A DNA stretch of 64,000 nt, taken from NCBI GenBank assembly GCA_040954595.2, contig CM082592.2:4852735-4916734 (forward strand). The letters run 5' to 3'. The notes below the pieces were generated by a model. It worked only from the letters and a program-made list of their open reading frames with translations. It was not told the origin of the DNA and ran no database searches. Below are positions 12,501-61,515 of the stretch, piece after piece; the stretch's first letter is position 1, and every line of letters starts with the position of its first letter. Source of the stretch: Balanoglossus misakiensis. Its lineage: Eukaryota > Animalia > Hemichordata. Made by a program: the position numbers and the translations under genes.

Positions 12501-15500
12501 TAGTAGGGCTGATATGGTAATTCTCGGCAAGGAAAGTCCAGCTGCACGCCACAAACAAAACAAAAGCCCAGAAGAAAGATATCATAACAGTTCATTATGT
12601 GCATAGATTTTGAGTTTATAAAGTGATTGTGAAGTGACGAATTTTACATTACGTGTCTAGGGTCTATTCTGTTCTTCATCAGTGGATCACGTGTTGTGCG
12701 TGTGTGCGTTCGAGTTTGAGGGTTGGAGAAGGGGTGGGGGTCAAATCGTGTGAGTGCATGTGTGCGCGAAACGAGGAAGGGTTGTCGTGGAAACACATGC
12801 AAGTCTGCAACGGTGTACTTCGGAGAGATCGTGACAGAGAGAGAGACCAAGAGAACGCCCACCTTTGAGATAATCCAGATCATGTTGGGCTGAGTGTGAG
12901 CGATCGAATCCATCGGACGGGGGATGAAAACATAAGGTTATAAAAAAATAAAAGAAACAACTTAAAAAAACTGCAATTGATGACAAACAAATATGTGGAG
13001 ATAAAGCAGTCACGTGACACTAATGTGAAATTAATGGAGGACGTCTAGAAAGTAAACAGACCATGTGAGATGAAAACTGAACAAAATAAGGGAAAAACAC
13101 GGTGACTGTGGTTCTTGTCCTAAATTATCGTACATATGTTGGTGAAATATTGTGCTGCTATATAAATATTTGGTATAATACAAAATGATAATGAAATCAA
13201 ATATGTGGTGATTGTTATCAGTGTAAATGTAAAATAATTTCTTGCAATGTGTATACACCGGTACAGATATTTATGTTTTTCCTGAATTTGAAGTGATTTT
13301 GCGAATTTGTTGTCAGATTCTTTTTCACAGTGAGCAATCTGTTGGCTTTTCTGGCTCACAACAAACAGTACATCCAATCATATTAGCTCTTGTACACTGA
13401 TAGTGTGCAAGAGCTAACATATATGCAGGGAATGTATACTGTATACACCAATCAACCAGCCAGCCAACAAACCAACACACACAGACGTACACCATCCAAC
13501 TCACTCACTATTAACCCACTAGGACACCCATATTAACCCAATTTACCTTCTGCTTCATCAATGTCAATAAGCCTGTCCAAGAAGTCCCTTATTCGGATAG
13601 CACTGTCCATGATGACTGGATACAGTGGCTGCATGTACTGTTCCTTTCCAAGCTGGGCGCCTAAATTACCAATACTTTGTATAGCCTAAAAAGATAAATA
13701 TGAGGGAAAAAATAGAGGTATAAGTCTTAAACATCACAATCTCCAACTAATATGGTTCTATCAAGAGCTAGCTGTTTAAACATATAAGACAAGATTTCTT
13801 GCAGCTCTTTAACCCTTTCACCACCATGGTTCAGTCCAATTGCATTGTTTTCTATGGTCAGTTGGACCACTAAAGAGGGAACTGGGGGTGAAAGGGTTAA
13901 GGTAAAATACAATACAGAAGAGATGTCTCGACAAGTGCAAGGCAAATGTCAATGTGTGATGTCCTTAAAGAAGGAATATTTAAATATGTCTGCATGAGCT
14001 TGCTTGCGTAAGTGTACACTATCCTCAGTGAAGTCCATGGGTTTTATCCTGTAAAACCTTTCACTTGCAGTGGCCACAACGATATGTGTTTGGGATTCAC
14101 ATATTTTCTGCAGATGTATGTACACTGACTGACAATCTCAGTACAAGGGAGGCCATCTGAAATTGCATCGTATCTAGCAAAACTCAATAAACCTCGCAGG
14201 GTAACAGCCTTACGAGATTTTGATAAATATTAGATAATCGCATCTCCAGCAAATCGTCAGGGGACTGTGATATAACCGTGTTGCCAGAGATTGGCCATCT
14301 GCAATATGTACATTTATATTGGATATCAGAGTTGCGCTAACACTTCCATCATATTTTATACTGTATCACAGACTGGCATAGAAATTACGGGGAAATGAGC
14401 TGAAATGAGTTGGGTTTTTTTGCCCCCATTCAACTGGAAATAAACCGGAGATTACTTGATTCCTATAAACCACCTGAGGAATCGAACTGTCTAGTTTTCT
14501 TCTCAACAGATCAGTCTGAGGATCATTCTTTATTGTCACGTACTGTAAAACAGGAAATTTTCACGACAGGAAATTTTCACGATATTAACTTGGGCAGCTA
14601 TTATGTGCTGATTAATTTTATCTCTGATAAACATTTTATTGTACACACTGATCTATCGCGACTGTTTATTTTCACGTTTTTGTGTGTGAAAAATTTCCCG
14701 TTTCACAGTATATTTTACTTCAGTGAAAGTCGCTTAAAAATAGACAGCACCATGCAAAAGTTACTTCTTGATACAGTCTCATTGTATCGATCTTTTCAAA
14801 ACTTTCTCAGAGTCATGTCAGTGAAACTTTTCCAGGTGCTGAATGTCAACGTCCTACTGTAAAACACTTTATTTTCGCGAGTTGAAATTTTCACGATATC
14901 GAGAGAGGCCACTGTCTCGCGAGTATTAATTTTCGCATTCTCTTATTTCATTCACTGCATCGTTATCTTAAAAAAAAAATTACGCGACTTTTTATTTTCA
15001 CGCTATTTTGGCTCTCGCGTATTTCGTGAAAATTTATCGCTCGCGAAAATAAAGTGTTTTACAGTAATTCAGACACCCTCACATACCTTGGCCAACAGAG
15101 TCAGCGTCCGACACACGTACTTGTCCGCGTGCTGCTCTCGCAGCGAGAAAAGCTTCGGCGACAATATGGCAGGTGCAAAAAACCTGAGAAACAGAAATCC
15201 GCTTATACACAGGTATTTGATGTCCTGCGGGGTGAAAAGAACCAAATGTCAGTGAGTCACCGTTACAGTTTCCTGTCAACTTTTCGAAATCGTCAAAAGG
15301 CAAAGAAAAAGATAATCTCTCATCACGATCTCTGGCTTCAATTTCATTTGACATTTTAAAGACTGATCCATCCTGCTGAATAAATCACACCAGCAAACAA
15401 AGAACTTTATAAAAGCTTTGATTTTAAAGTGTATCGTACAGGGCACGGTTCTTCAGGGCACTGCATGACCGTCTGCGGAGTAATCTGTTTCGAAACACCC

Positions 15501-18500
15501 AGTGAATGAGGTTCAGTCGCTGTTTGCACCTGCACCCATTGCAAAATAGGTCGGGAACATCCACGAAATTCAAATGGATGAAACCACGTATGCAACATGG
15601 TGGGTTAAAGATACACGGTCACCTGTGGAAAATTGTCTACAGTTACCATGGTAAACTTGAGATCTAGCCAATCACGGATTTTCAGTGGGTGGCACACGCG
15701 AGAAAAAGAGCGCCACCATACGTTCTTTAGAACTCTCAAATACGCCGTTTCTGTCATATATGGGCCTATGTAAATTGGAGGTGACCGTATACCTTTAACA
15801 CAGTACTCAGTACAGTTCAGGTAGGTGAAACCATTCATGCTGCGGGGGGAGTTCAGTCAGTAGAGCGAGTCACCCACCTCGTGTTCGCTATCGGGGAACC
15901 TGTCCTCCACCCTCTTCCTCAGCTGCTTGAAGGCCAGTCGCATGACGGGCGGGCATCTGTCCACCGACATCAATATACAGTTGATGATGGACACCAGGTA
16001 CGCTGTCAGGGTCGCCGTGCTCTGCTCCAGCATCTGGTTGGCACTCAGGGCTTTCACACTCAGCCTCCTGTGTGGAGGAAACATAGCGCGAACATATTAC
16101 ATTAAGGTAGAATGTGCCACGAAAAACGGTCTCAAGTTTTTTCTTGTATTTTGTCTGGTACATGTATTTGAATGACACCAGAGGTGACACACGCACACAA
16201 TGTACACACAGACACACACATACACACAGTTCAATGACAGTCACCACTGTCTGTTTTATTAACTGCATGGACGGTTTGAGAAGACTTACAACATACAGCA
16301 CTCAATTGCTGCCCTAAAGGTTAAGCACTTTCTCATTTAGTGAAGGGTTAAGTACGATCGCTATCTCATTGAGTGAAGTACTGAGGTCTGCGCGGGTCGT
16401 AATCATCACCGCAAGTGAAGCATAAAAAGTCATCTCAGTTGCCACTCATCATCATAAATTCAGCGAGAATTCATACACACATGGCTCTTAATTGTAATGT
16501 ACGGTATACTGGGGCTTAATGCAATGGTCCCTAAAGAATACCAGCTGGTCAGTATGTGAGCGGGCTGGCGGGGGTGAAATTGGTCTAAGAATGCAAGTGT
16601 GTTTTCCTCAATTTCTATCTGCCATGGCCAGTCATTCAAATGTTTGCAAATTTCACTGCAACTGGTTCTAAAAATATAAATCAAACTTGCACATCTGCAC
16701 TATAATATGGGAAAATTTTGTACAACAGGATTATGCCAAAAATTATCGCAGTTAACAGGTGTGTATAATAATTAAAGACATTGATAACGTGCAAGAGAAG
16801 AATTATTCACGTCAGAGAAAAATTATGCATGTCGGAAGAAAAGGCCACTACCCACCTTCTGAGAAGATCAAACTTATCAGGGTCCAATTCCAGCAGCTTG
16901 CGTTCGTTGAATATCTTATCAATCACAGGTCCCAGCGTCTCGTGTAAATAGGGCATTCCGATGACTTTCATGAATTGGTCCACCGACTTGGTTGCTAGGG
17001 AGTTGCCACGGAACAAGGTATTGGTATCCTCTGTTGCGAAGGGAAACAATGGAATGTTTGAGGAATATTTTTTTTTTTATTTCGAAAAATGGGATGAGTA
17101 TCTGAGCAAACTCAAGCATAAATTATTTAAGAATTAAAGATTATACTGGATGTTGTATTGGGGATTTGTCAATTCCTTTTATCCCCCTTACAATAGAATT
17201 AGAACTCCATTGGTATAACCTGGCTGTGAAACTGAATACCCTCCCTGCCACTATATTCACTTCTGACTTCTCTGCCCTAAATCTCCTTCTCATCAATTTG
17301 CAGACGTCTCGATCAGCAAAGTCTGAGCCTCAATACAAGCTAATACCTTTTCGTAAAAAAAAAGCGACTGTGTGTTTTCACAGCGAGTAATTCATCTCTA
17401 TCATTCAAGCCGCTTGCGGATTTCGAGTCTTTTCTCGATCGGCACAAAAGCAAAAAAGTCGTAAAATGTCAGGAAGAGTTAAACGCTGATTGTGAAGGAG
17501 CTCGATCGGGGATTTCCACTTGGGGAGAATAATTAGATTGGATCGCAGCTCTCCACACAGACGTCGTGTTATCTTTCTACTTGGCTTGGCAACACGAAAA
17601 GAGCAAAGACTGCCCCCCTCTGATAACGAAGGCTGATGGTGCCCTCGAAGGCAGTCATCACATCATATTATGAGTGTCATTCAGGCAGGAATGCATCTGG
17701 TGGTCTCGCGGATTAACATCCTTGATGAGAACGATCATTTTGTATGGGATGTGGGAGGCATCTCGTAAATCGGTATACCGTATGAAAGAAATAAGCAATT
17801 AGAAATTAAGACTTAGTCGCTGACTCAGAGTTTCCCGCTAGCTACATTGTTGTAACAATTGTACTTCTAGAATTTACCAGCACAGTTTACTGTAAAGTGG
17901 GAAATTTTTCTCAAATGATAACATTTCGCGAACTATGCGAGAGCAAAAAAAAAAAAATGCAAAAATAAAGAAGTTGCATAAAAATGTTTTTTGGGGATAA
18001 CGATGCAGTGAATTACCCCGGTATGAGAGACACCAACAAACAAAAACGTAACTGAGCCAGACCAATAGTCATAGCATTCATAAAACATACATTGTAATAC
18101 ACCGTACATATATACATTGACTTGCACAGAGAGATCAACAACAAAACACACACCCCTACATTTGGTCGGCAACAAGAGAAAGCAAATGACTCTGGGTGTA
18201 TAATAGAGAGTAATATAGCCGGCCTGAGGGATTTCGACGGCTTAGAAACTGTAAAGGTCGGGGTATAAAAAATCCATTACCTGTTCTGCTTGACCTTTTC
18301 CCTGTTTTAAGGCTGACTGAACAAACTATTAAGTTGATTATATATGATGGAAAATTTACCTGTGAGCTTTGGGGCAACCGTGTGTTTTATGTTATTATTT
18401 CTTAAAGACATTTCCATGCGATGTAAGAATCAGCGGTCCGTCTCTTTTATATGAATTCACACGGAAAACACGCGTTTTCAGTTGGTATTACTGTACGTGA

Positions 18501-21500
18501 CTTTGAAATCATCACATCAGATAAAGGCGTTTACAGCCAATGGAAGATTACGATTTCTTGGAATCTGTCGTGCGACGCAAAGTCACATGAGCAGGACGGA
18601 TGCATGAAATTTCTGTTAATTTGAAAATTTGCGTGAGCAGCACAAAAAAAGGTCGCATCTAATGATTTCAGAAGTGGTTATAATGATCGAGCCAGCCGTA
18701 TGTGGTCCAGGTAATTGCTAGCTCAAACATTCCTACTGGTTTGGTTGCCATGGCAATGATAGAATTGTGTAATCCATATCTCTATGCATGATGTGCCTCT
18801 GTCAATGCTCTGCTAACTCACTCAATGTGAACACTGATTGGCCTCTTACGCAAACCCAAACTCAACTTTTTGTAGAATATATTGATTTCATGGATGTTTT
18901 CACCGAAAATTTTAATGGCTATGTGGCTGACAAAATATTTACACCTATAAACTTGTAATATCTCCTTTAAAAAAAAACACGAAAAAATCATAACTCATCG
19001 AAACAGCTACAAGTCATTGAAGGATGGAAATCCATGATTGAAACACAAAACAAAACAAAGCAAAGCAAAACAAATATACTGAGAAAAATAAGTCATTAGT
19101 TACATTTACTGACACTTACCTTTGTAAGAGTCAAGACAGCGAAGTGATTCAACTACAACATATTTTATCACTTGCCTGCCAAAACTGGGTTCAAAATCTA
19201 TTTATAAAATGCATTTTTTTCCCATATCACAATGACTTAAAGCGCCAAGATGGTGTTGCTCACGACAATGATAAAAATGTTGAGAGGACACAATCTTCAA
19301 AGAGAAACAATCATTCAAAAGAAACAAACTTCAACTTTTGAGGCACTCACTAGCTCTCTTGACTTCTTGGGTGATAAGCACATCTAGAAAGGGTAGCACC
19401 ATTCCTTGGCCCAGGAAGATTTTGACGAGCGTTGTGGCTACTTCCATCTTGTCCAGCGTCATTACTTCTTCTAACATATTGAGTGGCGTTGGTCCCTCAG
19501 GCTAAAAAAACAACAACACAACCAGAGGATCAACATGGAGAGTTTTTGGTTCCGGAGACTAAGGCGTGGACTACCCAGACATAGTGCATGGTTAATATCA
19601 CACTCCATAGCCTTATACATGTAGAATTTTGAGAAAACAGTGTTACAATATTGTCATTTTCTTGAACATTCCACAAAAGGTGCCAAAATTATTAATTGAT
19701 ATAAAGAAAACACTATGTCACCGTGCTTGATCTTTTGACAGAGCTGTTCAGATATTTTCGCCATGAGAAATCTATAGCATTATGAGTGCAAGAAAAGTGC
19801 TGACTCAGCATTTTAACATTTTAGACCCCTAACTGAAAAAGCAGGATGGAAACACACTGTTTTCTCTTTATTTTTGTATTTAAAATTCACTGATATACAA
19901 GATATAAACAAATCAGGAAAATTACAATATTCTAAATTTTGAGCAGACCACTACCCACTCATATTTTTTTCTGAAAACTAAGTCTCAGTGAAGCAAACAA
20001 CACGACTACTTTTTTCTTGAGAATCAAACTGGCATGCAATTTCCCCTTTCAATAGAGATTGTCAACAAAACCTCACTGAAATCCCTACGTGTCTCTTTTG
20101 AATATACCGTACAACTACAGTGTACATGATGTAATTCCAAACCATCAGGCTGTTCCACAGCTATCAGACTACATGTACACACAAGAGTTGATGAATTTAC
20201 TCTGTAGACCACGTGATGGTGTCCTTTTTTTAACACACTGTGTAAATTCCACTTGAAACGCTTAAATGAATTCGTTCAACATTTTTTTCTCGATTGCTTC
20301 CATCTGTATCCATGGCGACAGATTTGATGAACGTGTTTTGCATAAAAGGGAGCATGTTTTAATTCACGTACGGCCAGACTTGTACATGAAGGACCTAGGC
20401 ATACCTGGATTTTCCATTCACACAAAGATCAGAACTGCAGCATCTGGGCTTATTATTTCCCTGAATGCAGCCTGCGCGTCAAAATTATTTCTGTCAGACT
20501 ACACCTTTTAAAAACATCCAACATGGGCTGACGTCATTTTCCATGCCACGTTATGTCAATAATAAAAAATCTGTTGCATTTTCACATTTCCTATACAACT
20601 TAGCCAATGTGACTACATGGGACTACGTTTAAAAACATGTTGTGTTGTATTTAATCAAGTGCCAATCTAATTTTCTCTGCCATGATTGATGTACATACAT
20701 GTACCGATTAATGTTTAGAATGCTTGATTCGATCAAGCGTGTTCTACAATGTGCATTTCACTAAATGCATGTTTTGTACCGTGTGAATTCTCTGTTTTTT
20801 TAAAACTATTTCATTTACTTAAGAATGAATGTGAGGTACATGTATACAGGGTTTACACACACAAGTTGTGGGACTCATATGATCTGAGAGGATTAACCCT
20901 TTCACCCCCAGTTCCCTCTTTAAAGGTCCGACCTTACCACAGAAAACAACAGATTTGGACTGAACCATGGTAGCGAAAGGGTTACACAAGGAATGAACAT
21001 CAGCTTTTGAGTGAAATAATGATTCAACTTGACAAGTGTGCAAAGAAAATCCAGCTCGTAAGTCTTTTCAAACACTGAGCAAAGTCACGATCAAAACACA
21101 AGAAATCGCAGAAAACAAGATTTTTTCGAAAGACCAGTAATTGCCCAGAAGCTGTGTTCATCGCACACTTAAATATCCTTAGTCGTGAACGCTGTAAAGC
21201 GAGGGGGCAGTTCACCACAGCGTAAGTAGATAATGACTTCCGAATATGTATTCATTTTGGCGAATACATGCAGGATGTTTTCATGTGTTGGATACGATAG
21301 CAACTGAAATTGTGTGCTATATGTGAAAATAGCAAAATGCAAACTGTAATTACAGGGACAATTTTGTTAGATAATAATAGATTTTCAACTGAAAACAGCA
21401 TGACGTAGTCTTTTGGAATTTGTGATGCATGTTCTGTACATATAATGCCACTTTGAAAGCAAAATCTCGGTTAATATAACTCAGTATGAGTTTTATGCCT

Positions 21501-24500
21501 TTAGGTAAGTGATTGTGTATACAAGGAGGTTTATGGAATTAAACCATACATTTTGCTGTACAACTCTGGGGTGCCCATCAGGCCAATGAGTTTTACGACA
21601 AACTGCATGGTTTTATTCTGTAAACCCATGATTATGAGGTTGCTTTTATTACCATACCAGTATTATACCATAATTTTGGCATGTTTCAGGTATTTAAGAG
21701 AGTCGAAAATACAAGAGTAGGGGGCCAGTGGCATTTTTTCGGATTTGATATCATAGCTCTAGCTTGAGTGTAGCCACAACAAGTTTGCTGTTTATTTCCA
21801 ATTAAATCAGACTGCTGAAAACAAAGAAAGTGTCTGGTTTACCTGTAAGCCAAACAGTTTCAAAGACAATCTGGTTTATTAGTAAATCGAACACTCCGAA
21901 ACAAAAAAGGTAAAATAGGAAGAGGTTATGAAAGAAGAGGTGGGAATGAAAAACAGAGAAATATTAGGTTTTACAAATTCACCCAGTTAAATAATTTTGT
22001 CTCTGTTGATAAAAAAACCAAGAATGTGTGATATTTACCTGTGCTTGGGACACTGATTCTACTAAAAGATCTATGAGTGGTTGATAGTACTGAGATGGTA
22101 GTATTCGTTCCTCAGAACACCTGACCTTTAACCTCAAAGAACCAAGATCTGGCCTGCGGGCAGAGGAAAAGAAACAAGATAGAGTTAATGACATCTGTAT
22201 ATTATTTAAATCATTTAATATCCTTTTTTTGGCTTGAACAGAAAAGATGCACCTGTAGTGTATATTTGAACCAAATTACGATTTGAAATATTTAAGCATG
22301 AATATATTTTATCTGCAGTTTAAAATGAGGCAATAAATTCGGATCAAAAAAATCCTCAGTTATCAATGTAAAATACTAGAAAATATTTCAGCTTTACAGT
22401 TTTCTAATCTGAACAGGGCTCATGAATCATGTGTGGAAATTTAAAAAAAAAAAACTGTCAGAAATGGCCTGTGTATATACCTGTACACATAAGCTGGGCT
22501 ATATCCCTCAATGATGTTTCTCTTTCAACCGCCTAATGATTAGGTTACAGCCACTTGACATGAAATACAACGGCCACTGGATAGCTCTCAGCAAATTGAA
22601 TTTGCGCACTGGGGGGAAAAATGCTTCCTTCCTGATTGCGAAGATGCTGTAAGTTTGATTCGATTCAATCAAGGAAATGCGCTAGCTTTGGGTGAGGGAG
22701 CCATAATTTGTTGCGACCGGAGGGCTTTTTTGTTAAAAACAGTCAACTGAATGATTTGTGTTTATTCTTGGGAGTTAACTTGAAAGATTTGTTTTAGCGC
22801 GAGGCGGGATTTTTATCTCAGGGAGATGATACCTGGTTGGTTCAAGGCATACTGTATGTGTGCCTGTTGGAGCACTCACACAGTCAACTATCTGCAGCCA
22901 GAGGGATTTGTTAATCTTATAGCGTGGGTTTGGGTGTTGTGTTATTTTGCAAGATAAAACTTTAGAGATGCTGACATTAGCCAGAGGTTACGTTAACTCT
23001 TCGCTCGGTAACCTAAGGGATTTGTCTCTTATCTGCTCAGTGTCGCCAATTCGTGTTTACTGGAGGGAAAATGCGTACCAACTGAACTAATAAATGTAAA
23101 CAGAGTACGCAGGGAGATTTGTTAGACATGTGAGTCGGTGTGCATCTCGATTCACTGTAGCTCATGATTGAGATATTGGTAAATTTTGCCGACTGGTCAC
23201 TTGGCGTTTGATTTTCATCAAATGATCCATTCTTGACTGTAGCTTATGGCATCAAAGCAAACAGCACCCAAACATGAATACAGCAGGCAACCCATTTCTA
23301 CCAAAATCTACGATGAGAAATCTTACATTTCCAAGTTACATATTAAACCTACCCGTCCTCATCCTCTTCGATTTCTCTAGGTTTCAGCCTCAGCCACTCG
23401 TCGTACGTCCTGTTGGGTTCAAGGTCGGCAGGATGCAGTTCAATGCGCCCCATGTAGTCGTTATTTCCAAGCCTGTCCCAATCCCACACTATTAAGTGTA
23501 TGACTGCGTCTCTGAGCGGTTTTGTGATCTCAAAGTCAAAGGTTTCGTACCATCGGGGAAACCGTGTTCTTCTGATGGTCTGCAAGAATTCCAATGTAAC
23601 ATAAAGTGGAACAATATAAAATACTGTTAAAAATTAAAGCTGTTTTCACATGGTAATCAGTCAAACTTGTTTCGACTCTGTTATTTGCATTCTTACATGT
23701 GTGTTAACTTGAGCATGTTTGTGATAAACCAATTTTGAAAGTATAGCTAGATTCTTCTAAGTAGATTTAACAATTAGTCTAGTTTTTATTTTGCCTAAAG
23801 TATGTTAATGATATAATTGTGATAACTTCAATGGGACAAAGCTACATGTACACCTTGCATCACCATGGTGTTTAAACTTCAAGTCCGGAAGTCCAACCTG
23901 CAAAACTAGCAAGAGAAATTTCCAATTTCCCGAAACCTCAAAGTTGACATTTTTTACTACACAATATGTTGGCAGGTTTCTCAACCCCAAAGGACACAAA
24001 ATAATGAAGACATCTGCCAACGTTACCTGTGTACTCTTATTGGTCCCATTGTAGGTAATTTTGGCAAATGGATCTGAAGTACCAGTCTTGTCCTTGGCTG
24101 CAAGGTCCCTGTGCAAGTGATCAAAGTAAAATAGCATTACGTTATTGGCTGAGATGCAGGGATGCATTATGGGTAGCCAGCAGTGCCCAGAGAATATACT
24201 ATAACTGAGAATGTTATGCTGAACTGGTCAAACTTCTGACGCCTGTAATTTGCTTTCTGTATTTGATTCTTACGCATCACTTGGCAGTCGTCCGGTTACA
24301 CTCCTGTCCAGTTCAGTTGTCAAGGTGACCAATTTCCCTTGATTCTCGTTATTCTTGGATCAATCGAGTAATCGTATCTCCTTTTCAAATATCGCTATTA
24401 TAATAAACCCTCATGAATTGCAGTATTTGTTGCCAAGAGCACGCTGACTGACTTTGTATACTTTATCAGGCGTTACTCAATGAGGCTAATTTTGCAGTCC

Positions 24501-50132: not shown

Positions 50133-52177
50133 GTAAGTATTCTGTACTATCGTAGGAGTGTGCAATCTTAGTTTGTAAGGCCCAGCAGTGTTTTTAAAAG
50201 TCCAGTGTAGACGTAATCGATCGCGCCTTTGTATGTTAATGCGCCTGTGCTGTGTGGTTGCGTGGACGCACCACTAGAAAAGGCCAATGCTCTCTTTAAG
50301 AAATCTTGTGTACGAGAATCAGACTATTTTCTCCAAGCGTGCATTCACCCCCTACCCTAATTTAGAACTATAGAAACTTTATTTTCCTATAGCCAGCATT
50401 TTTCTATAACGTGCGCATAGTGGCCATTGTCAATGGTGATTTGAACAGTTTGGAAGATGTTAAAGTCCTCACGTGAAAAGGACTCAAGGTCACCCGAGGT
50501 CGTTGTGATATTTACTGCTTCGGCGATCTCTTATCAATAATACAGACAACATATTGTCTTGTTATCTATCTGTCCTGTAAATAATGCACTGACGTCACAA
50601 AAGTAGATCATACGATGCCGTTATTAATATTTATGGTATATGTTGGTAGTGGTATATATAAGGGATCGGGGGCCTTTTAGTTTCTGGAGGGGGTGTATGT
50701 CAGTGATATTTTTTTCAGCCACTGTTATAGCAATTGTTTCTCTATCTGCCAGTCTTACTATGTACTCAAGGCAACATCTGCTATGTCCCCCCCCGCCAAG
50801 AAATCAAATGGGCCCCCCCCCCCCTAAGGAACAAGTAAAACACGGACAGAGACGTGGAGACCGGTGTTTAAGTTCGATGAGGCAGGAACAATGAGCTATA
50901 TTTCCTTTGGATTTATAGTTGCCCTCAGTTTGAAATGGTTACGAAAGAGACATTAATAATAAATGCCTTTCCGGCCTTTAAAGAGAGTTGGTTTTAGTTC
51001 ACAAGCGTTCTGAAGATCTATTTCCATTTACACCAATTACAGGCCCTGACACCGAGGATGAATTGCAGACAGCGGCCATCCAGTCATACAACAAGGCTGC
51101 GAGTTGGTTGAAATCACAACAGAACGACCAATGGGGGTGGGAACACACGTCGAGCGTCGTGTTCGCTTTGCAACTGACCAATCCAGACTGGTTTAAGAGA
51201 GACGACCTGGAGAGCCAGCTCAACGTCAAGCAGTTAGAGATCGAGCTGCTGGCTGCTCTTGGTAAACGAAAGACGTGAGTAGGCCTACGCCTGCCCACCA
51301 GAAAACACTTTGATGCAAACACGATCAGGGCTTCAACGCAACCAAGCCGAAAGCACTGGCAATTGTCCATGTCCATGTTGACGTAGTTCTTGACCGATCT
51401 TGACCGATTAGTTCTTGACTTTGACACCCTTTAAAGACCCACAGTGGGGTCTGTGTCGTTATGCGTGCACTCTATAAGCAGTGTCTACATACTAGTACAC
51501 AATGTACTGTACATACTCCAAGTACGCGTTTACTGTCTATATACTGTCTATAGCGCGTATGCGCATCATTAGCAACTTTGGGTCCACAAGAAAGATCGCT
51601 GTGGAATGAAACAGTTTATCACATTATAATGATTTTAAACTCCCCATTTTCAGCATTGAGACCATGAAGACTGAGTTGAAAGAGGAGCGCACTTCACTGT
51701 CCGAAGACCTCTCAGCCGGTCCGTTGGCCTATCACATTCTGGCGCTCCACGCCACATGCCGCAACGTCACCGACTTCTACGGACACAACCTCGTGCATCA
51801 TCTGGAGCGCGAGATGAAGACGTTCCCGGACCACTTCAAGGGCTTCAACAACTACTTCCAGTACGGCCTGGCGGTGTTGGCGCTCTGCAACACGAAGTCT
51901 CACATCAAGGAGAAGCACATTCAGAAGCTGTACGACTACGCCAGTCAGGAAGGCTGCGGCGGGTATCTACATGGCAGTGGTCAGTGACACCGGGTGGATA
52001 CATGGGTTGTAATGAAAGTGAATTCCTACACACTAGATTGAATAATGTGTCATCATTCCTTTCTCTCTTTGGAACACTACGTTACTCAATGAATTCGCCG
52101 TCGACGGATGATGATGATTGTGATGGTGATAGTGATGATGATGTTGACAATGATGATGATGGTGGTGGTGGTGGTGG

Positions 52178-52253
<76 letters not shown>

Positions 52254-54332
52254 GATGGTGATGATGACGGGCCATCAAGATTTGTTCTCTCCCCATTCCA
52301 GATTCGACAGCCACGGTTGTCACAGCGATGGCCTGCGTGTCCGAGATCCCGGAGTTTGCCGACGATGACAAGGTGAAATTCCTACTCGGCAGAGGAATCG
52401 AAAACCTAACCAGAATCCAAGAACCCGGACCCGACTACGGCTTTGGGAATATCCACACTTCCGCCCTAGCCGCACAGGTATATAGTTCACCTTCAAATTT
52501 GCGAGTTTCGTAATCCTCCATTTTGTAGCACGCGTTGGACTATTTTTTGGTGCGTTTATGATTGGATACTGTTGGCACTGTGTGACGTGCCAGAAAAATC
52601 TCTCAAAGTTCTCGTCGGTTTTGTCACATGCTTCATATAGTAATACTAGACTTACATTTCACTTTTTACAAGGTTTGCTTACCACCATTGCTAGCCTCCG
52701 AACGTATAGCATTAAATATTGCGAGCAACTCCAACTGTGTTATAGATTGATGAATCCAGCCAAGATTATAACACAGCAACGAGTCGGTACATTTTAACTA
52801 CCATGTTTTAGAATAGAAAATGCATGTAAGAACAAAATGAAGACGATACCTGAAATTACCAAAATATAGATTTCCACTCTCAACACTTGTTTGAAAATGC
52901 GCTTTGTGGGCGTGTTCAAATGGGAGTGAATCGCACAACTCTGTATAACCAAAAATGCGAAATTCATCCACAGGCACTATCTGCTGCCGGTGTATCTCCA
53001 TCGATCTGGCACTGTAATGACGTCATCAGGGGTATCATCGACAGCCAAGAAGAGTCTGGTTCCTTCGGTGATCATTTGATGACCACCATGCAAGTCCTTC
53101 CCTCGCTTGTCGGCAGACACTACGGTAAAATCGACACGTCCAGTTGTCAAACGACTGAGAAAAGTAAGTTCGAATTTTCGCAATCTGATTTAATCAGATG
53201 TAGCATTTTGAGCTTTTGTTCATGTTTTTTCCGGTCATTTTAAGTCATTTATGTTCACCACGATCATCTACACAGGCGAACAAGCACACACCTTAGATCC
53301 CCTCGCGTTCGCGAAGACGATCTCCGTCACACTGACCGTCGTCTACAAAAACGGCACCATGGAGTCCGATGTCTTGTACGTTCCCAAAGGACGGAGTCTC
53401 TACGACATCATTGACGCTGCCTCCCAGCACCACGACCCGAAGTTCACGTGAGTTATTCCCTGTAGAAACCCTGGGTCTGCCCAGTTAGGTGCGCAAGTGC
53501 CTGTAGATGTCGAACGGCCTCGGCTGCAGTACAATGTAGCCGAGGCCGTTCAACATCTTCAGGCACCTGTGGTTGTCTCATTGTCGAGTCAAAATGGGGT
53601 TTTGGAGCCAGTGCATTCATTAATTTCAATTTCAACAGGTGTGAAGTTTCGTTTATGTTAATGACGAGGCCCGTGGCAAGGTGCATGGCAAACGTATGGC
53701 ATCTTCAGTCGCTCTGAATGCTCAATAACACAATCCCTAAGAAAACGTCGTATTACTCATTTTTTTCCTGTAGATTTGACACGATAGATTCCGCATGGGG
53801 TCACTTCGTCCACGCCATCAATGGCGTTTCTGGTGTGTCGGGCAGATCGTACTGGCGTATCTTCAACAATGAAGAAGCCCTGGCAGCAGGTGGGTGACGT
53901 GTGTGTGAAAGGATCTTACCACTAATAGTCTATTTTCCTAACTCCACGAGACATTGCGAGATCTCGCGGGGCTAGGCAGTTTATATGGGAGGATATTTTC
54001 AGGTGACACAGGACAAAGAATACGTAGCCTATCCTGTTAAACGGCACAAAAGTTAAACTCTGTACCTAGTTTCATTCAGCTTGACTTGTATTACTTGCCT
54101 AGCAATCGGTCACGGTTGCTCCGGTAATTAACCAAATCTCGCGAGATCTCGCAATGAGCAGAAAATCATCTATGACAGCTTTTCAAAATCAAATCAGATT
54201 TATTAATTATAGTAGCGTGTAATGTTTCATCGATATACATTCTATTTCTGTTTGTTTCAAGGTGTGGAAGACTTCTATCCAGAGAATATGGACCACATCT
54301 ATTTCAAGTACACATTGATACCGAAGATTTAG
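50051..54332 (+). CDS. Secreted cobalamin-binding protein, transcobalamin/intrinsic factor/haptocorrin family (8 exons, about 454 aa)
   Basis: Exons 50051-50132, 51043-51274, 51654-51979, 52302-52477, 52974-53163, 53276-53447, 53774-53889, 54262-54332, all phase-consistent, 1365 nt. Signal peptide; alpha-domain motifs G.LA..ILAL...C, NYFQ..LAVLALC, D..A....A.AC, FGNIHTSALAAQAL; beta-domain SAWGHFVHAINGV...YW...GV. Confidence 0.88.
50662..50824. mobile_element. PIF/Harbinger-like MITE (GGG...CCC, TAA TSD)
   Basis: taa-ggg...ggccttttagtttct / agaaatcaaatgggcc...ccc-taa; imperfect TIR. Confidence 0.5.
51043..51274 (+). CDS. Cobalamin-binding protein exon 2
   Basis: CAG acceptor; GTGAGT donor, phase 2. 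Confidence 0.85.
51654..51979 (+). CDS. Cobalamin-binding protein exon 3
   Basis: AGPLAYHILAL..TC and NYFQYGLAVLALC motifs. Confidence 0.9.
52107..52268. repeat. (GAT)n/(GGT)n trinucleotide microsatellite, intronic
   Basis: Directly visible; lies in intron 3 of the cobalamin-binding gene. Confidence 0.95.
52302..52477 (+). CDS. Cobalamin-binding protein exon 4
   Basis: DSTATVVTAMAC...FGNIHTSALAAQ. Confidence 0.9.
52974..53163 (+). CDS. Cobalamin-binding protein exon 5
   Basis: W.C...GSF...QVLPSL.G..Y motif. Confidence 0.9.
53276..53447 (+). CDS. Cobalamin-binding protein exon 6 (beta domain start)
   Basis: ISVTLTV...VPKGRSLYDII..A; CAG/GTGAGT. Confidence 0.88.
53774..53889 (+). CDS. Cobalamin-binding protein exon 7
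   Basis: SAWGHFVHAINGV...SYWRIF beta-domain motif. Confidence 0.9.
53952..54156. mobile_element. Inverted-repeat element (cattgcgagatctcgcg ... cgcgagatctcgcaatg), probable MITE
   Basis: 17-bp perfect inverted repeat within intron 7. Confidence 0.55.
54262..54332 (+). CDS. Cobalamin-binding protein exon 8 (GVEDFYPENMDHIYFKY..stop)
   Basis: Typical family C-terminus; TAG stop. Confidence 0.87.
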
Positions 54333-55041: not shown

Positions 55042-55073
55042 TATATAAAAGGCGCGGGTTCGAAACCGACAGT
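55042..55073 (+). promoter_or_regulatory. Putative TATA box and initiator for the HEPN-like gene
   Basis: TATATAAAAGG followed about 27 nt later by ACAGT; about 470 nt upstream of the ATG. Confidence 0.45.
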
Positions 55074-55521
55074 GTTCGTGGAAAAAAAAAGACGACAATT
55101 TTCCCCTGAGTCGAATTGAACCCGTCTCCACGGGACAGTCTTAACGGCCAGTGTTGCCAACCGGAGAAGTGTACCCTGCCGCACGCTCGGTCGTCCTGTG
55201 ATACGTAAAATTGCGTGGAACTGTCGATGAAGGCCCAACCCAAAGTTGGTATGCATGTGACCACCATTGGACCTGCGAGTTTTTGGTATACTGTCTGACC
55301 TGCAGCTGCCACTGGTAAAGGTCTGAACTTTGAACTGCAGCTTCAAAATATCACTCACTTACGCTCAGGGGAGCGGTGACGAACATGACCTAGATGTCCC
55401 TAGTTTTGTAGCTATTCAAAACAGTAATAAGCGATCAAAGGTGGGATTTCTGAAGTCTTTTGGCAATTTACAACTTGGAAACGGATGAACGTATAAAACG
55501 TATAGAAAAATAGACTCAAAA

Positions 55522-55920
55522 ATGGGACAGTCAAAATCTTCGCAGTATGTCTCCAAAGGTCTAACCAAAACAGAAAATGACTTCGAGTTAGTCATTCGCA
55601 CCTCAAAGGAGCTGGAGCATCTCCTTGACAACTATCTGGCAGCGCAGGGCAAGGGCCTGCACGAGAAGACCAACAGCGTTCAGGGTGAGATCACGCCGTA
55701 TCTGGCGAGAAAGTTACACTACATCGCCACCATACGGAACAAGCTGGTCCACGAGCGCGACTACAACAAAATCGACAGGGGCAACTACATCAGAGCGTTT
55801 GAAGAAGCGCAACGACAGCTCGCCGAGACAATTGAACAATCTCACAGAGGAGGTGGAGACGTCGACGTCGAGATTGGCGGCCATAGACGGAGAACGAGGA
55901 CTCGATGCGTGATCCAATAA
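55522..55920 (+). CDS. Small DUF4145/HEPN-like protein with RxxxxH motif, N-myristoylation signal and CaaX box (132 aa, single coding exon)
   Basis: AAAATGG start context and coding-like composition. ELEHLL helix, GKGLHEK, IATIRNKLVHE (R72..H77), MGQSKS N-terminus, RRRTRTRCVIQ C-terminus. Confidence 0.8.
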   Translation: MGQSKSSQYVSKGLTKTENDFELVIRTSKELEHLLDNYLAAQGKGLHEKTNSVQGEITPYLARKLHYIATIRNKLVHERDYNKIDRGNYIRAFEEAQRQLAETIEQSHRGGGDVDVEIGGHRRRTRTRCVIQ

Positions 55921-56586
55921 AAAAAACTAAAAGCAAAGCGCATCGCTGCTCAGCTGAGTAGTCGGTTCATGTGTAGGCCTATGGATATTACAAATAACAG
56001 TACTAATCTGGAAGAGATTAATCGTTTGTTTTTTAATCTTATTGTCGCCATTTTGCTTATGAAAATCCATCGATACTATTCTGCGCACTGACGCACGGTG
56101 GATGAGATAGTTGGACATCAAAGAAGTATTATACTTTGTCCAATGACGCATCCATATGATGCGTTTTTATTTCGAGTTTTATTTCCAAGGAAAGGAGCAG
56201 GGCGGAGACTCCTAGTTTTGTTTGTTGCACGAGAATTTATCACGTTTTGGCGTTTTTATGTAGTTTTAGAAAATATTGATGAATAAACTTAACGGGAAAA
56301 AAAAGATTTCCGACAGATTTTTTTCGGCTGGTTTGTTATATGAAAAGAAATGCTTGTTGGCTTAACATTGATCCTTCTAGTAAATTGTGTGAAAAGACGC
56401 GGTTACCCAGAAAATTTTAAAACCAGTCCGAATCTTATACCCGGGCCGCATAGTAAGTCCCCCCGGTTGTGCACAATATCTCCAATGAAGCTGGGATGTG
56501 ATTTCTGACATACATGCTGTGTTGTTTGAAGATACTGGTTGTTGAGCTGTTCCCATTCTAAAAATGGTTGCATGAAACTTTCTAGC

Positions 56587-57391
56587 GCAGTTTCATGCAT
56601 AGCCGTGGTTCTTACCGAAAAATCGTGGTTCTTACGTTATACAGCATACAAAGTCAAACATTTTCAAGGTTCTAGCTTACAAAGTCTTAATTTTAGTCGA
56701 TGCGATGATAATTTCTCATTAAAAATTAACAATTACCGCTCTAAAGCTCTCTCATATCATCAAGGTTCTTAGATAGGCAGTTTCATGCATAGCCGTGGTT
56801 CTTACCGAAAAATCGTGGTTCTTACCGAAAAATCGTGGTTCTCACCGAAAAATCGTGGTTCTTACGTTATACAGCATACAAAGTCAAAAATTTTCAAGGT
56901 TCTAGCTTACAAAATCTTAATTTTATTCTATGCGATGATAATTTCTCATTAAAAATTAACAATTGCCGCTCTAAAGCTCTCTCATATCATCAAGGTTCTT
57001 AGATAGGCAGTTTCATGCATAGCCGTGGTTCTTACCGAAAAATCGTGGTTCTTATACGTTATACAGCATACAAAGTCAAAAATGTTCAAGGTTCTAGCTT
57101 ACAAAATCTTAATTTTAGTCTATGCAATGATAATTTCTCATTAAAAATTAACAATTACCGCTCTATAGCTCTCTCATATCATCAAGGTTCTTAGATAGGC
57201 AGTTTCATGCATAGCCGTGGTTCTTACCGAAAAATCGTGGTTCTTACGTTATACAGCATACAAAGTCAAAAATTTTCAAGGTTCTAGCTTACAAAATCTT
57301 AATTTTAGTCTATGCAATGATAATTTCTCATTAAAAATTAACAATTACCGCTCTATAGCTCTCTCATATCATCAAGGTTCTTAGATAGGCA
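56587..57391. repeat. Tandem array of four about 190-bp units with a variable 20-bp internal subrepeat
   Basis: Units start at 56587, 56777, 57007 and 57199 (190, 230, 192, 190 bp); subrepeat cgtggttcttaccgaaaaat. Confidence 0.95.
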
Positions 57392-59101
57392 TGTCTGTCG
57401 GAACCTATGCATGGTGCATGCACTCATTGCACTGTACATGTATATTGTTTCACACTATACCGGCTCCCTCTGCATCCAGTTCCCGACCGCCATGTGCAAA
57501 CGGTATCAACATACAGATGTGGTTGTTTTGCGATTATGCGGGCGCGCAACGAATATCATGTGAACTCGACGCTTATCTGTTTAATGGATGATGTCGTTAT
57601 CTTGTCACCGATCAACAGCGATCAATAATGCCCCCCACCTTATCACGAACTGTGAGTGAGCTAAGCCCGGGGGAAAAAGCAGTGCCACGGTCCGAACTGG
57701 TACGAAACTGACCAGTCCAGTGGTCCAGCTATACGGACTCATCATCCCGGAGCCAGAGAACCAGCTGCTATAGGCCTAGGCTACGTATGAGATAATGAGT
57801 CGGACAGTTGGCATAGACACTCAGTTCTGCTTCTAATAAGTCGTAAGAAGAGCTTTCAAAAAAGTAAGTACGCCAGAATTTAAAGGTAAGCTATTACCAG
57901 CAGTGACGATTGAACAAGTCATGTATTTTCAACCACCTGTTGAGTCAAGCCGCGCTGTGAGAGTGCGTTCACACACACGTTATCGTGGCGGTAGGTGACT
58001 TGTATGTACTATCTCCATGCTGTGCTTTTCCGCACTATAAATACACAAGAGCTCAGTATGGACAAACACGAAAACAGCCTCTGTTTTCTAATATGAAACC
58101 AGCGAGCCTACGGTCATGAACTAAAAATACCTCTGAAAATATTACAGACCGTAAAAATAAAAGAGTGGTGTTCATACAATTCGCAGAAAGATATACCATC
58201 AAAGCTATACACAATGGGCGTTGTTTCTGCACTGGATATCAAATTACATTCGCGCAACACATTAATTTCCGCTGGCATTGGACGGTTTCTGTAAAGCTGT
58301 TGCGGCTTATTTGAATTCACGGATTTGGCGACGCACCATTAACGTTTAGTGCCAATTTTGAGAAGGGGATTTGTGGCTGCGTGGTTTCGTGTGCGGACTT
58401 GCTTGCTATACGGGAAAGGGCACGGTAGGTCCCAGTTTCGAATCCCCTAAGAAACAAGGTGATCGCGTTTCTAGACTACTGTGGGTTACAAATAATTCGT
58501 TGGATTTATCAACCAGCTAAAATAAAAAGCAATGACCTTGAAACCCGGCCAAAATAATGAGTGCCCTTTCCAATGATGTGTCAAAAGCCGAAAGCCGGCT
58601 GATGTCTCATTTGTGTGAGTGTATACTCATTATCGAAACGGACCATCGATAGTAACAAGCGCTGACTGCATGTAAAACGAAGACCCACACATGCGTTCAC
58701 TATTTTGGTATGAGATATTTATTACAATTTAAATTTGACAAGCTGCCACCACGCGTGCTATTGGTTTCGTGTCACTCGTTTCTGGAGAATAACTGTGAGA
58801 GATCAAGAAAAGACTTGGTTTTTTTTACCAGTGCTCACTGTTTACTAAAGTATTTATGAAATATATTTGACGGTCATCGCACTTATCAATCCCGATAAAA
58901 GTTAACAAAAACGGTGGATAGCGGCAAGGTAAGCATTACGGAGCCGACAATATATTTTTTTTTCGCAGAACTACCACATGTTAGAGAGAAGGAAGTGTCG
59001 GTTGTCAGGTTGACGATAAAAAGCACCGAAGCTCTTGTTCTCATCTTATTCTTGCAGATAACTGGGGACTGTTGATCCAGTCGCGGTCGTCATTTCTTGG
59101 G

Positions 59102-59521
59102 ATGGCGAAATCTCTGTTTGATAAACTGTCTTGGAGGCCGAGCGAGAGTATCGAGAACTACGCCTTCCTGGCGCGCAAAATGCGCCTGGCAATCGAGCAA
59201 CAGATAGACGCTGACTTCAAACTAACCAGGGGAAACATCTTCGACAAGATACAGACTCTGGAAAACAACAACTTCTCGCCGGAGTTGCTGCACAAAATAC
59301 AATTCATCGCCAGGAGTGACGAAAATCTCGGGAACGGCGAGATTCAAGTGGACGACAGTACTTTGAACAGTCAGGAATTAATCAGGAATTTCGAGGATGC
59401 GAGTAGAGAACTCGCTGAACTCAGAGGGAGTCACCAAACTAACAATTTGACGCGAATTATTCTAAGTGTGCTGTTCTACGACGTCATCCTGTTTTGTTTC
59501 AATTGTTTATTCGCCAGATAA
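59102..59521 (+). CDS. Divergent paralog of the 55522 protein: putative inactive HEPN-like protein with C-terminal hydrophobic tail (139 aa)
   Basis: ATG at 59102 after a strong acceptor at 59057. Aligns by eye to the 55522 protein (PELLHKIQFIA vs PYLARKLHYIA; IRNFEDASRELAE vs IRAFEEAQRQLAE). RxxxxH is replaced by DENLGN. Confidence 0.7.
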   Translation: MAKSLFDKLSWRPSESIENYAFLARKMRLAIEQQIDADFKLTRGNIFDKIQTLENNNFSPELLHKIQFIARSDENLGNGEIQVDDSTLNSQELIRNFEDASRELAELRGSHQTNNLTRIILSVLFYDVILFCFNCLFAR

Positions 59522-60440
59522 ACTTGCCTGAATATTGCTGGAATTACATTTATAAGTACATGTAATAGCATTATTGAAATTTTAACAGTTCTCAGAAAAA
59601 TTCAATATTCTATTGTTAAAATGTAATTATTTAATAAATGTGCAATTTATTATGATTTAAAGGGACTAAGTGCGAACGTTTATTTTAGTTAGTTCTCTTT
59701 CTTTTGACGGGCTATTTATGTTATTCTGCTCACTGAAACATGCTAAATGACCACATCATTTCATATCCAGTGTCGCTGACTTTACGTGTGCACGCATCTT
59801 CTTTCCTTGTCTCAGTGCAGTCGAGTCGGGACAGTACCTTGGGACCCGACAGCACAACCTCACACAAAGTAGGGCGCCATCTACGGCACAGATCGCTCTT
59901 ACATAACCCTTGACCTGACGATGACCTTTGAACGTAGACTGGATCCTGGACGACGAGTGACTGTGGCACCGGGTTTGGAAGGCGAAGTAAGTGTTAACGC
60001 TTGACAAGGAGAGAATTATTTATGTACAAATATTATCAAGGCGAAAGCATGTCCTCCGACCCACGAATTTACTCAAACACACATTCAAATTTACTATGGC
60101 ATGTCTGAAGCCGGCGAAAAGTCGGGGCCGCTGAACTGTGTGTGGCACTTTTTGACGTCGTCAGTTCGTGGTTACGTCACATTCCGACGCTGTAGCTTGC
60201 GTAACACCAGCAAATTTCATCTCCACAAACTGACGACGTCATACGTACACATAGACTAGTGTACTGCTCTTACTGTACTGTGTTCATGATGAAAACTTTT
60301 ACTGTTTATTACACTAGCATATGTCCATGAAATGTCCATGAAATGTGTAAGGTGACCACTTTCAGTCACCATTAAATATGTGTATGTGTTACAGATAATT
60401 TGGAAGCATTGGTCTACTACTGTGGAGAATTTACACCTTG

Positions 60441-61220
60441 ATGGCAGCTGTCAATATAAGACCAGCAATTAAGACGTTATTTCATCGTTCACAAAATGTC
60501 TCCTGCTGTCGGCATTTGGCCTTTGTGCCGGCGAGCGACCCAGTCCAGCCTCACCAGATAGAACAGCTTCAGGACATGCTGAACTCATCCAGGAACTTGC
60601 TGGTGATAACAGGTGCCGGAATATCGACGGAATCCGGCATTCCCGATTACAGATCGGAAGAGGTCGGTCTGTACGCCCGGAGCGACAGCAGACCCATCCA
60701 GTACGCGGAGTTCCTCAAGTATCACGAGAGGCGCAAGCGCTACTGGGCCAGGAACTACATCGGCTGGCCGAGGTTCAGTTCCTTCCAGCCCAACGTCGCG
60801 CACAAGACCCTGGCCGCCTGGGAGAAGCAGAACAGAGTGCTGTGGCTGATCACCCAGAACGTAGACGCCCTGCACGCCAAAGCCGGCACGAGAAACCAGA
60901 CCGAGCTCCACGGGTGTTCGCACCGCGTGGTGTGCCTGGGCTGCAAGACGATCTCCCAGCGCACGGAGCTACAGGAACGAATCCTGGAGTTGAACCCTCT
61001 GTTTGAAGCCGATTCTGTCAGCATCGCTCCAGACGGAGACGTCCTGCTGGACGACGAACAGATCGAGGACTTTCGAGTTCCCGATTGCCTAAAATGTGGT
61101 GGGATTCTCAAACCGGACGTGATATTCTTCGGAGATAACGTTCCGAGACCCATTGTCCATTTTCTGTACAAGAAAGTGGACGTGTGCGATGCAGTCTTAG
61201 TGGTAGGATCGTCCCTAAAT
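60441..61220 (+). CDS. SIRT4: SIRT4 coding exon 1
   Basis: ATG at 60441, GTAAGT donor at 61221. Confidence 0.95.
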
Positions 61221-61515
61221 GTAAGTTATCATACATTGCAACATTTCCTCAAATACTGTGGCCTGCATCCCTGTTGAAACCAAAAGAACAGTCGATAACT
61301 AAAGCGTCTCTGTTTTATTTCAGGTTTACTCAGGTTACAGATTTATCACGCGTGCGCATCAGCAGAAGAAACCTATCGCCATTGTGAACATCGGGGAAAC
61401 CAGGGCCGATAAGCTGGCTTCTCTCAAAATCTCAGCCAAACTTGGAGATATTCTACCAAAGTTAGAAATAAAACCATCTGTGAGGCAGGAGGCTACTCAT
61501 GAATTCATGATATGA
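60441..61515 (+). CDS. SIRT4: NAD-dependent sirtuin-4, mitochondrial (2 coding exons, about 323 aa)
   Basis: Exons 60441-61220 and 61324-61515. GAGISTESGIPDYRS, RYWARNYIGWP, TQNVDALH, HG, two CxxC Zn pairs, APDGDV SIRT4 loop, LKPDVIFFG, GSSL/VYSGYRF, basic N-terminal targeting-like peptide. Confidence 0.96.
61324..61515 (+). CDS. SIRT4: SIRT4 coding exon 2 (VYSGYRF...NIGETRAD)
   Basis: Pyrimidine tract plus CAG at 61323; TGA at 61513-61515. Confidence 0.94.
   Translation, partial: VYSGYRFITRAHQQKKPIAIVNIGETRADKLASLKISAKLGDILPKLEIKPSVRQEATHEFMI

Follow-up and report, generated by a model that had tools for sequence, protein, structure and literature searches.

HEPN ribonucleases (RNases) carry an Rx4-6H motif, a polar residue after the arginine and an acidic residue upstream (PMC3710099 section 6). 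The described systems closest to the genes treated here are the DUF4145 protein RAZR, the membrane HEPN groups of Anantharaman et al. 2013, the IRE1alpha/IRE1beta pair and the HepT/MntA toxin-antitoxin. Here, we analyse two genes in 64,000 nucleotides of the hemichordate Balanoglossus misakiensis (contig CM082592.2; this whole 64-kb stretch is called the window, and all positions refer to it):

55522-55920, + strand: gene 1 coding sequence (CDS), 132 amino acids; a small protein of the HEPN/DUF4145 type whose catalytic motif is intact and whose two ends carry lipid-anchor signals
59102-59521, + strand: gene 2 CDS, 139 amino acids; a remote homologue without the catalytic residues, under purifying selection

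The genes are 3,181 bp apart, both on the + strand, and neither requires a coding intron. An earlier reading made from the letters (the sequence-only reading) had reported two co-oriented intronless open reading frames (ORFs) about 3.2 kb apart, and its coordinates, strand and quoted peptide pairs match ours. By analogy with known HEPN proteins, gene 1 likely encodes a stand-alone membrane-tethered homodimeric endoribonuclease. The best explanation of the locus as a whole, in which we have modest confidence, is a membrane-tethered HEPN RNase accompanied by a selected dead duplicate in a regulatory or scaffolding role.

Gene 1 resembles RAZR and DUF4145 in its HEPN helical fold, its Rx4H motif and a marginal Pfam match. 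RAZR, a defence RNase triggered by phage, bears a zinc finger at its N-terminus (PMC13017515), whereas the gene 1 subfamily lacks a sensor domain and has a C-terminal membrane anchor or lipidation signals at both ends. DUF4145 is listed for bacteria, archaea and double-stranded DNA viruses, not for eukaryotes (PMC3710099 Table 1). Membrane-associated HEPN domains were already predicted in 2013 (PMC3710099); the likeness to these groups lies in a HEPN domain on the cytoplasmic side, where RNA degradation was proposed (PMC3710099 section 15), and one of the groups overlaps DUF4145, with a Vibrio example (PMC3710099). In the three 2013 groups the transmembrane (TM) segment is N-terminal to the HEPN domain (with a WP signature, or of Abi2/Swt1 type) or a TM pair precedes a Zn ribbon (PMC3710099), whereas the gene 1 subfamily has the HEPN domain followed by one C-terminal TM segment, or an MGxxxS-HEPN-CaaX layout. 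The two genes together recall IRE1alpha and IRE1beta, a membrane-bound HEPN (KEN-type) RNase and a co-assembling suppressor paralogue, which can serve as a model for the heterodimer proposed in the sequence-only reading; IRE1beta is a weakly active kinase-RNase with its defect in the kinase domain (PMC7041686), whereas gene 2, a putative partner at most, encodes a minimal, fully dead domain. The type VII toxin-antitoxin HepT/MntA (PDB 5yep, 7ae2) provides top structural matches to gene 1 and shares its motif, but the neighbours of gene 1 are a cobalamin-binding gene and a sirtuin, with no MNT gene adjoining. Among eukaryotes, HEPN domains are described in C6orf70, Las1, Swt1, Cxorf38, Sacsin and expansions in Daphnia and nematodes, some laterally acquired and some predicted inactive (PMC3710099 section 9). 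These families have other architectures, and that section describes for them neither myristoyl/CaaX anchors nor an active-plus-dead tandem pair (PMC3710099).

The HEPN motif and the two predicted anchor signals of gene 1 are located as follows:

55735-55752, + strand: R72-N73-K-L-V-H77, the Rx4H motif; conserved in the family, the defining HEPN motif
55522-55539, + strand: MGQSKS, matching the N-myristoylation consensus MGxxxS; modification predicted, Ser6 present in 131 of 150 fetched MG-starting homologues
55885-55917, + strand: RRRTRTR-CVIQ, polybasic patch and CaaX box; prenylation predicted

Gene 1 scores 23.2 bits against Pfam DUF4145 (PF13643; gathering threshold 23.1) and E 0.0017 against HepT-like, and its AlphaFold2 model has a confident four-helix core (predicted local distance difference test, pLDDT, about 90). 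The ten top Foldseek rows are all HEPN-type, each with E>0.1. Compared with 48,161 chains by VIA-align, the model fits HepS, AF0298, YutE and SO_3166 best (Z 9.1-9.4, root-mean-square deviation 2.8-4.3, 101-110 aligned). A sequence search of the PDB with the family profile gave nothing significant, and a viral fold library gave no match at E<=0.001. We assign gene 1 to HEPN because the structural match agrees with motif and profile, a high Z alone being common in helical bundles; the HEPN/DUF4145 identity proposed from the letters is borne out by profile, model and Foldseek/VIA-align rows in combination, E and Z not being decisive alone. R72-N73-x3-H77 together with the upstream E32 corresponds to the HEPN RNase signature, with a polar residue after the arginine and an acidic one upstream. 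Among 356 homologues the motif residues are conserved at frequencies of 1.00 (R), 0.99 (N) and 0.99 (H), values that are inflated for members found through the motif itself. Five basic residues precede the CaaX box, a number equalled or surpassed by only 2 of 165 such homologues, and a CaaX box with Q in the last position favours farnesyl. The single cysteine of gene 1 lies within this box, and an N-terminal Cys4 zinc finger of the RAZR/PD-T7-4 type is absent. Since the family shares Ser6 and Cxxx ends, the MGQSKS...RRRTRTRCVIQ arrangement is a family trait, not chance.

A profile search yielded 1,503 family representatives at 50% identity. Of the best 150 of these, 135 have RNxxxH, and the remaining 15 are, by eye, mostly gene models truncated at an intron; 77 of the same best 150 end in Cxxx and 40 have a hydrophobic tail, with none having both. 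The CaaX boxes of MG-starting homologues are of the CVIS/CIIC/CVIM type. In proteins taken from genomic loci (79 bacterial, 1 viral), a hydrophobic tail is present in 69 of 80 and a CaaX box in none of the 80. The sequence-only reading had called both genes membrane-targeted, and the predicted signals extend this to the whole family, with CaaX boxes in eukaryotes and a C-terminal TM helix in bacteria. Conservation beyond Rx4H is high at K29, E32 and GxGLHxK. Eukaryotic members named among the matches listed come from green algae, diatoms, Nannochloropsis, oomycetes, a raphidophyte and a chytrid, to which the ESM Atlas adds haptophytes; bacterial members, with their C-terminal hydrophobic helix, come from planctomycetes, Vibrio and others. 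No named animal protein is among the matches listed (best 150 of 1,503; 120 of 809), most of which are unnamed, so that this is not absence. We found no publication describing the subfamily, its lipid anchors or a small HEPN active/dead pair, with subscription papers outside the search, and the family lists of PMC3710099 may include subfamily members. The members form a compact, apparently undescribed HEPN subfamily, nearly all of them with a membrane-attachment signal of one of these two kinds.

Several members show further variations. At Gemmata-type loci (L002-L016, L024, L026), many tails start with 'GC' followed by hydrophobic residues (for example NKGCFGLV), approximately where the eukaryotic CaaX proteins end; speculatively, a truncated TM helix could have given rise to the CaaX box. 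Some bacterial members (P0072, P0118, L150) are fused to a CFI-box-CTERM domain, with an NF041770 match for P0072, and P0159 and P0169 contain HEPN domains in tandem, one of them degenerate, an arrangement that mirrors the active/dead pair in cis. Partly degenerate motifs occur in a few eukaryotic members (the P0079/P0147/P0153 set; RDKLIND in Fibrocapsa, GNNLVH in P0147), suggesting that catalytic loss may have occurred more than once. Among them is the member from the chytrid Globomyces, with RNKLLY and a hydrophobic tail.

Gene 2 departs from this family at the catalytic motif and at the C-terminus:

59318-59335, + strand: D73-E-N-L-G-N78 where gene 1 has RNKLVH; the net charge of this region, -4, is lower than in any of the 356 homologues
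59456-59512, + strand: C-terminal hydrophobic helix IILSVLFYDVILFCFNCLF, a predicted tail anchor; 19 residues, Kyte-Doolittle mean 2.33, central Asp

BLASTP aligns gene 1 and gene 2 at 33% over 49 amino acids (E 1e-4), and their Smith-Waterman score is reached by 2 of 20,000 shuffles. A family hidden Markov model (HMM) built without either gene gives gene 2 15.4 bits, compared with 10.5 for the best of 5,000 shuffles, and among the window's 1,311 six-frame segments gene 2 is its only other inclusion-level match (E 0.0014). An HMM of 356 members assigns 14.9 bits to gene 2 and 0.8 to its reverse; 3,000 block shuffles reach 10.3 at best. Aligned to the family by hhalign, gene 2 reaches 90% (E 1.7e-6 over 100 columns) with a broad alignment and 43% with a narrow one. 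By these sequence comparisons the similarity is greater than chance would give, and gene 2 is a real, remote homologue of gene 1. The replacement of R72 by D73 and of H77 by N78, also part of the sequence-only reading, holds in the HMM alignment; hhalign gaps the motif stretch differently, and either way no R or H is available there. The loss goes far beyond these two residues: gene 2 has the consensus at 4 of 21 aligned columns conserved to at least 80%, having lost K29, G43, G45, H47, R66, T70, R72, N73, K74, H77 and R86. With its acidic charge, the former active site speaks against RNA being bound at this place, although the value of -4 is partly a consequence of the loss of basic residues. 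H64 with R71 may be a candidate alternative active site in gene 2, one without support in the family.

In the model of gene 2, residues 116-138 form a helix. In the hhalign alignment, its tail (59447-59521) begins TRIILS where gene 1 ends TRCVIQ-stop, and it contains two Cys and the central Asp. The top matches of gene 2 with listed ends (P0188 and P0194) and most of the others are CaaX-type, which makes the hydrophobic tail probably a secondary gain; it may stem from translation continuing beyond the stop codon that followed an ancestral CaaX box. A search for homologues of gene 2 gave 25 candidates, none at E<=10, and its ESM Atlas matches, all below 0.9, are uninformative, with a low Atlas recognition score (2135).

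Read depth over both genes is single-copy, as in their flanks, alleles extend across the two, and each CDS is carried together with flanking DNA by contigs 579 and 1,067 bases long. The GC content at third codon positions (GC3) is 0.64 in gene 1, 0.61 in gene 2 and 0.67 in the sirtuin exon. Depth, alleles and GC3 show that the two genes belong to the host genome. The entire gene 2 CDS is contained in a single contig of run X1, which has 19 substitutions; the 7 that fall within the CDS are without exception synonymous (P about 1e-5; 9e-5 when transitions are weighted). The indels listed for this contig all lie outside the CDS, with 6 further indel rows outside the listing. Gene 2 is under purifying selection and maintained instead of decaying. 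The allelic changes in gene 1 comprise 3 synonymous ones and 2 replacements; the replacements fall in the N-terminal linker, which is variable. Contigs of run X3 cover gene 1 (55357-55869 and 55840-56296) and gene 2 (59226-59628). Although labelled 'DNA?', this run behaves as RNA because its contigs over the neighbouring gene contain GT..AG joints; these contigs carry no expression level, strand, tissue or cell type.

The closest relatives of gene 1 are eukaryote-type, at 51-57% identity, and gene 1 was likely gained from a marine protist-type gene or micro-eukaryote. Genes resembling those of microalgae are on record for hemichordates, the alternatives being that they were transferred or that other lineages lost them repeatedly (PMC4729200). 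Gene 2 is likely an old tandem duplicate of gene 1. Tandem duplication is favoured by adjacency, by the same start-to-core distance in both genes (N at residue 19, shared by 1 of 137 homologues) and by the rank of gene 1 for the last helix of gene 2. The proposed sequence of events would then be transfer from a marine micro-eukaryote, tandem duplication in place, and catalytic loss with an anchor swap in gene 2. Predicted myristoyl and prenyl groups would pin gene 1 to the cytosolic face of a membrane, where its homodimer would cut nearby RNA; activity and dimerisation are extrapolated from HEPN biology and lipidation from consensus motifs. Its role would be routine or stress turnover of membrane-associated RNA rather than that of a conditional toxin. 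Gene 2, most likely a non-catalytic tail-anchored derivative, would have lost catalytic and basic residues, gained its predicted tail anchor and taken on a non-catalytic regulatory or scaffolding role.

The wider distribution of the family bears on the toxin/antitoxin-like or antiviral role that the sequence-only reading had proposed. Of 121 sampled genomes of the genus Vibrio, 120 contain the family, 116 of them with one match, and the sole miss is a 1-Mb assembly. Among the 25 loci titled Vibrio or Vibrionaceae, 23 have an rsmD-like gene nearby and 21 have ftsY; at L042 and L050-L080 the match, at about 6001, lies in an ftsY-rsmD-DUF1145-YhhN-DUF2492-DUF2500-MarC region. We found no publication on this core Vibrio homologue. 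A six-frame scan of 161 loci (1.26 Mb; about 20 eukaryote-type, many or most short) at 8 bits, low enough to pick up a copy like gene 2, revealed no second paralogue, the only double match being a split gene; the active-plus-dead pair was encountered only at the Balanoglossus locus. Mobile DNA gave matches in 5 of 72,556 plasmids, 0 of 50,697 phages and 1 viral contig, and seven proteins had no match to PADLOC system models at E<0.01. Gene 1 reaches 13 bits against NCBIfam HepT (cut-off 60), and no MNT antitoxin gene was identified beside gene 1 or among the recurrent neighbours. The toxin or antiviral role is unsupported given a Vibrio core gene with housekeeping neighbours, the lack of paralogue pairs in these loci, the rarity on plasmids and phages and the empty PADLOC search. 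The family does not look like a toxin needing an antitoxin. Its core status in Vibrio and its spread in algae and protists make the function testable in tractable hosts.

What gene 2 does, and whether gene 1 is its partner, can be read in several ways. Gene 2 might heterodimerise with gene 1 and poison a composite active site, giving a toxin/antitoxin-like or antiviral RNase switch. HEPN active sites do form across dimers (PMC13017515), and the weak paralogue IRE1beta suppresses IRE1alpha by co-assembly (PMC7041686); moreover, gene 2 adjoins gene 1, is under selection, retains the hydrophobic pattern of the catalytic helix and is acidic where gene 1 is basic, and one spliced run has contigs over the two genes alike. 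We nevertheless consider such a switch unlikely: the family persists partnerless (120/121 Vibrio genomes, 0 second paralogues in 161 loci) and is rare on mobile DNA, gene 2 also lacks the conserved GxGLH loop and K29, and the anchors differ and may target different membranes. Any direct effect of gene 2 on gene 1 appears doubtful, and if there is one, a charge-complementary dead subunit is a tentative suggestion for its form. The same low expectation as for the switch applies to the fuller scenario of an animal that took a protist-type doubly lipidated HEPN RNase and whose duplicate became a tail-anchored, acid-faced dead subunit, heterodimerisation being the off-switch; if true, this would be a minimal, independently evolved counterpart of IRE1alpha/IRE1beta control. 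A stronger contender, which we take seriously while stopping short of calling it probable, is that gene 2 is a tail-anchored helical adaptor with an unrelated role and that the genes are neighbours by history only. Its extreme divergence (branch length 3.54), the loss of nearly all conserved surface residues, the swapped anchor, the dissimilar flanking DNA and the separate poly(A) signals all fit an adaptor, whereas adjacency and orientation have been kept and the hydrophobic core and last helix are still gene 1-like. An adaptor is also compatible with the first half of the explanation we prefer, the membrane-tethered RNase with a selected dead duplicate, from which it differs only in the partner of gene 2.

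The remaining alternatives concern gene 1 and the DNA itself. Gene 1 might not be an RNase at all, its conserved R/N/H/K surface serving RNA or nucleotide binding or a different chemistry near the membrane. The conservation of K29, E32 and GxGLHxK and the Vibrio core status would be unusual for toxic RNases, and non-catalytic HEPN domains exist (PMC3710099), but Rx4H with a polar residue after the R and a conserved upstream Glu is the signature established for RNases, and RAZR, another DUF4145 protein, uses such residues to cleave single-stranded RNA (PMC13017515), making this reading rather improbable. Contamination by algal DNA, an assembly artefact, or a chance ORF or pseudogene as the nature of gene 2 might be suspected from the absence of coding introns in both genes, the algal affinity of the closest named relatives, and the failure of word searches to find a database homologue of gene 2 together with its low Atlas score (2135). 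Uniform single-copy depth, flank-spanning contigs, host-like GC3, animal-type poly(A) and splice signals, the 7/7 synonymous single-nucleotide polymorphisms and the homology tests have already largely refuted these possibilities, to which we give very little credence.

A number of observations weigh against the preferred explanation by a tethered RNase and its dead duplicate. VIA-align itself cautions that Z values of 8-9 are common among helical bundles, and DUF4145 support is marginal, with 10 of 54 subfamily members reaching E 0.01; gene 1 also has His where 96% of the family has Arg, as do 8 other members. The gene 2 model (pLDDT 82, HEPN matches at Z 9-9.8) was built on the family alignment and is hence circular. 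The duplication is not shown by the tree, in which gene 2 has a branch of about 3.54 substitutions (approximately unbiased test, p 0.289). As a match to gene 2, gene 1 ranks 18th of 357 overall and 185th of 357 for helix 1; it ranks first of 357 for the last helix (9 of 13 identical), a segment picked post hoc. FastTree with 153 rows, after 20 near-identical diatom-type rows were dropped, singles out neither a donor nor the sister relation of gene 1 and gene 2, and its Chlorellales grouping has a support of only 0.76; IQ-TREE with 52 of 209 de-duplicated rows likewise singles out neither, and no starred clade contains gene 1. Ancient retention with loss is a possible alternative to transfer. 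In Gemmataceae the family is distributed patchily (7 of 81), as would suit conflict genes, and RAZR shows that a DUF4145 protein can act in defence (PMC13017515). All three read runs are from one sample, possibly the source of the window itself.

If gene 1 is an RNase, it would represent a new kind of membrane-proximal RNA turnover enzyme for eukaryotes. The animal locus, with its probable microbe-to-animal gain and selected catalytically dead paralogue, is a natural experiment in the origin of a pseudo-enzyme.

The surroundings of the two genes contain the following features:

51664-53447, + strand: upstream neighbour (part), a spliced eukaryotic cobalamin-binding protein gene (PF01122), with GT..AG joints in run X3
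55042-55049, + strand: TATA-like box TATATAAA 5' of gene 1, a candidate by its letters
55492, + strand: second TATAAA near gene 1
56282-56287, + strand: AATAAA poly(A) signal of gene 1; the X3 contig stops at 56296, 9 bases past AATAAA
56604-57391, no strand assigned: tandem high-copy repeat of about 192 bp between genes 1 and 2; summed depth about 3,000-4,600, versus 40-200 in the flanks
58929-59057, + strand: predicted intron in the 5' untranslated region (5'-UTR) of gene 2, with AG|GTAAGC donor and pyrimidine-rich CAG acceptor, without RNA cover
59633-59638, + strand: AATAAA poly(A) signal of gene 2; the X3 contig reaches 59628
60441-61277, + strand: downstream neighbour, a SIRT4-like sirtuin exon; E 1.3e-98 to PDB 5oj7, which we take to be SIRT4

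The predicted 5'-UTR intron of gene 2 contains a 16-nt indel allele. We set aside the possibility that gene 2 has a further coding exon upstream: the frame is open back to 58985 but without an ATG, an in-frame stop lies just before the candidate donor at 58929, and the indel allele falls in this stretch. No DNA similarity was found between genes 1 and 2 or their flanks, blastn gave no match suggesting transposon ends around the genes, and the 64-kb window has no tRNA genes. The repeat between the genes consists of about four tandem copies of the 192-bp unit with internal 20-bp repeats; further high-copy interspersed repeats lie at about 54050-54200 and 59700-59860, and summed depth rises to about 4,600 at 56604-57391 and at about 54050-54200. 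A long low-complexity (GAT/GAC)n tract occupies 52100-52280 in one of the introns of the cobalamin-binding gene and gives rise to artefactual ORFs rich in His, Asp and Met. Farther upstream, a multi-exon gene with C2 and PH exons lies on the - strand at about 10500-24300, probably a RASA2/RASA3-type GTPase-activating protein gene, and its exons are consistent with an intron-rich animal genome.

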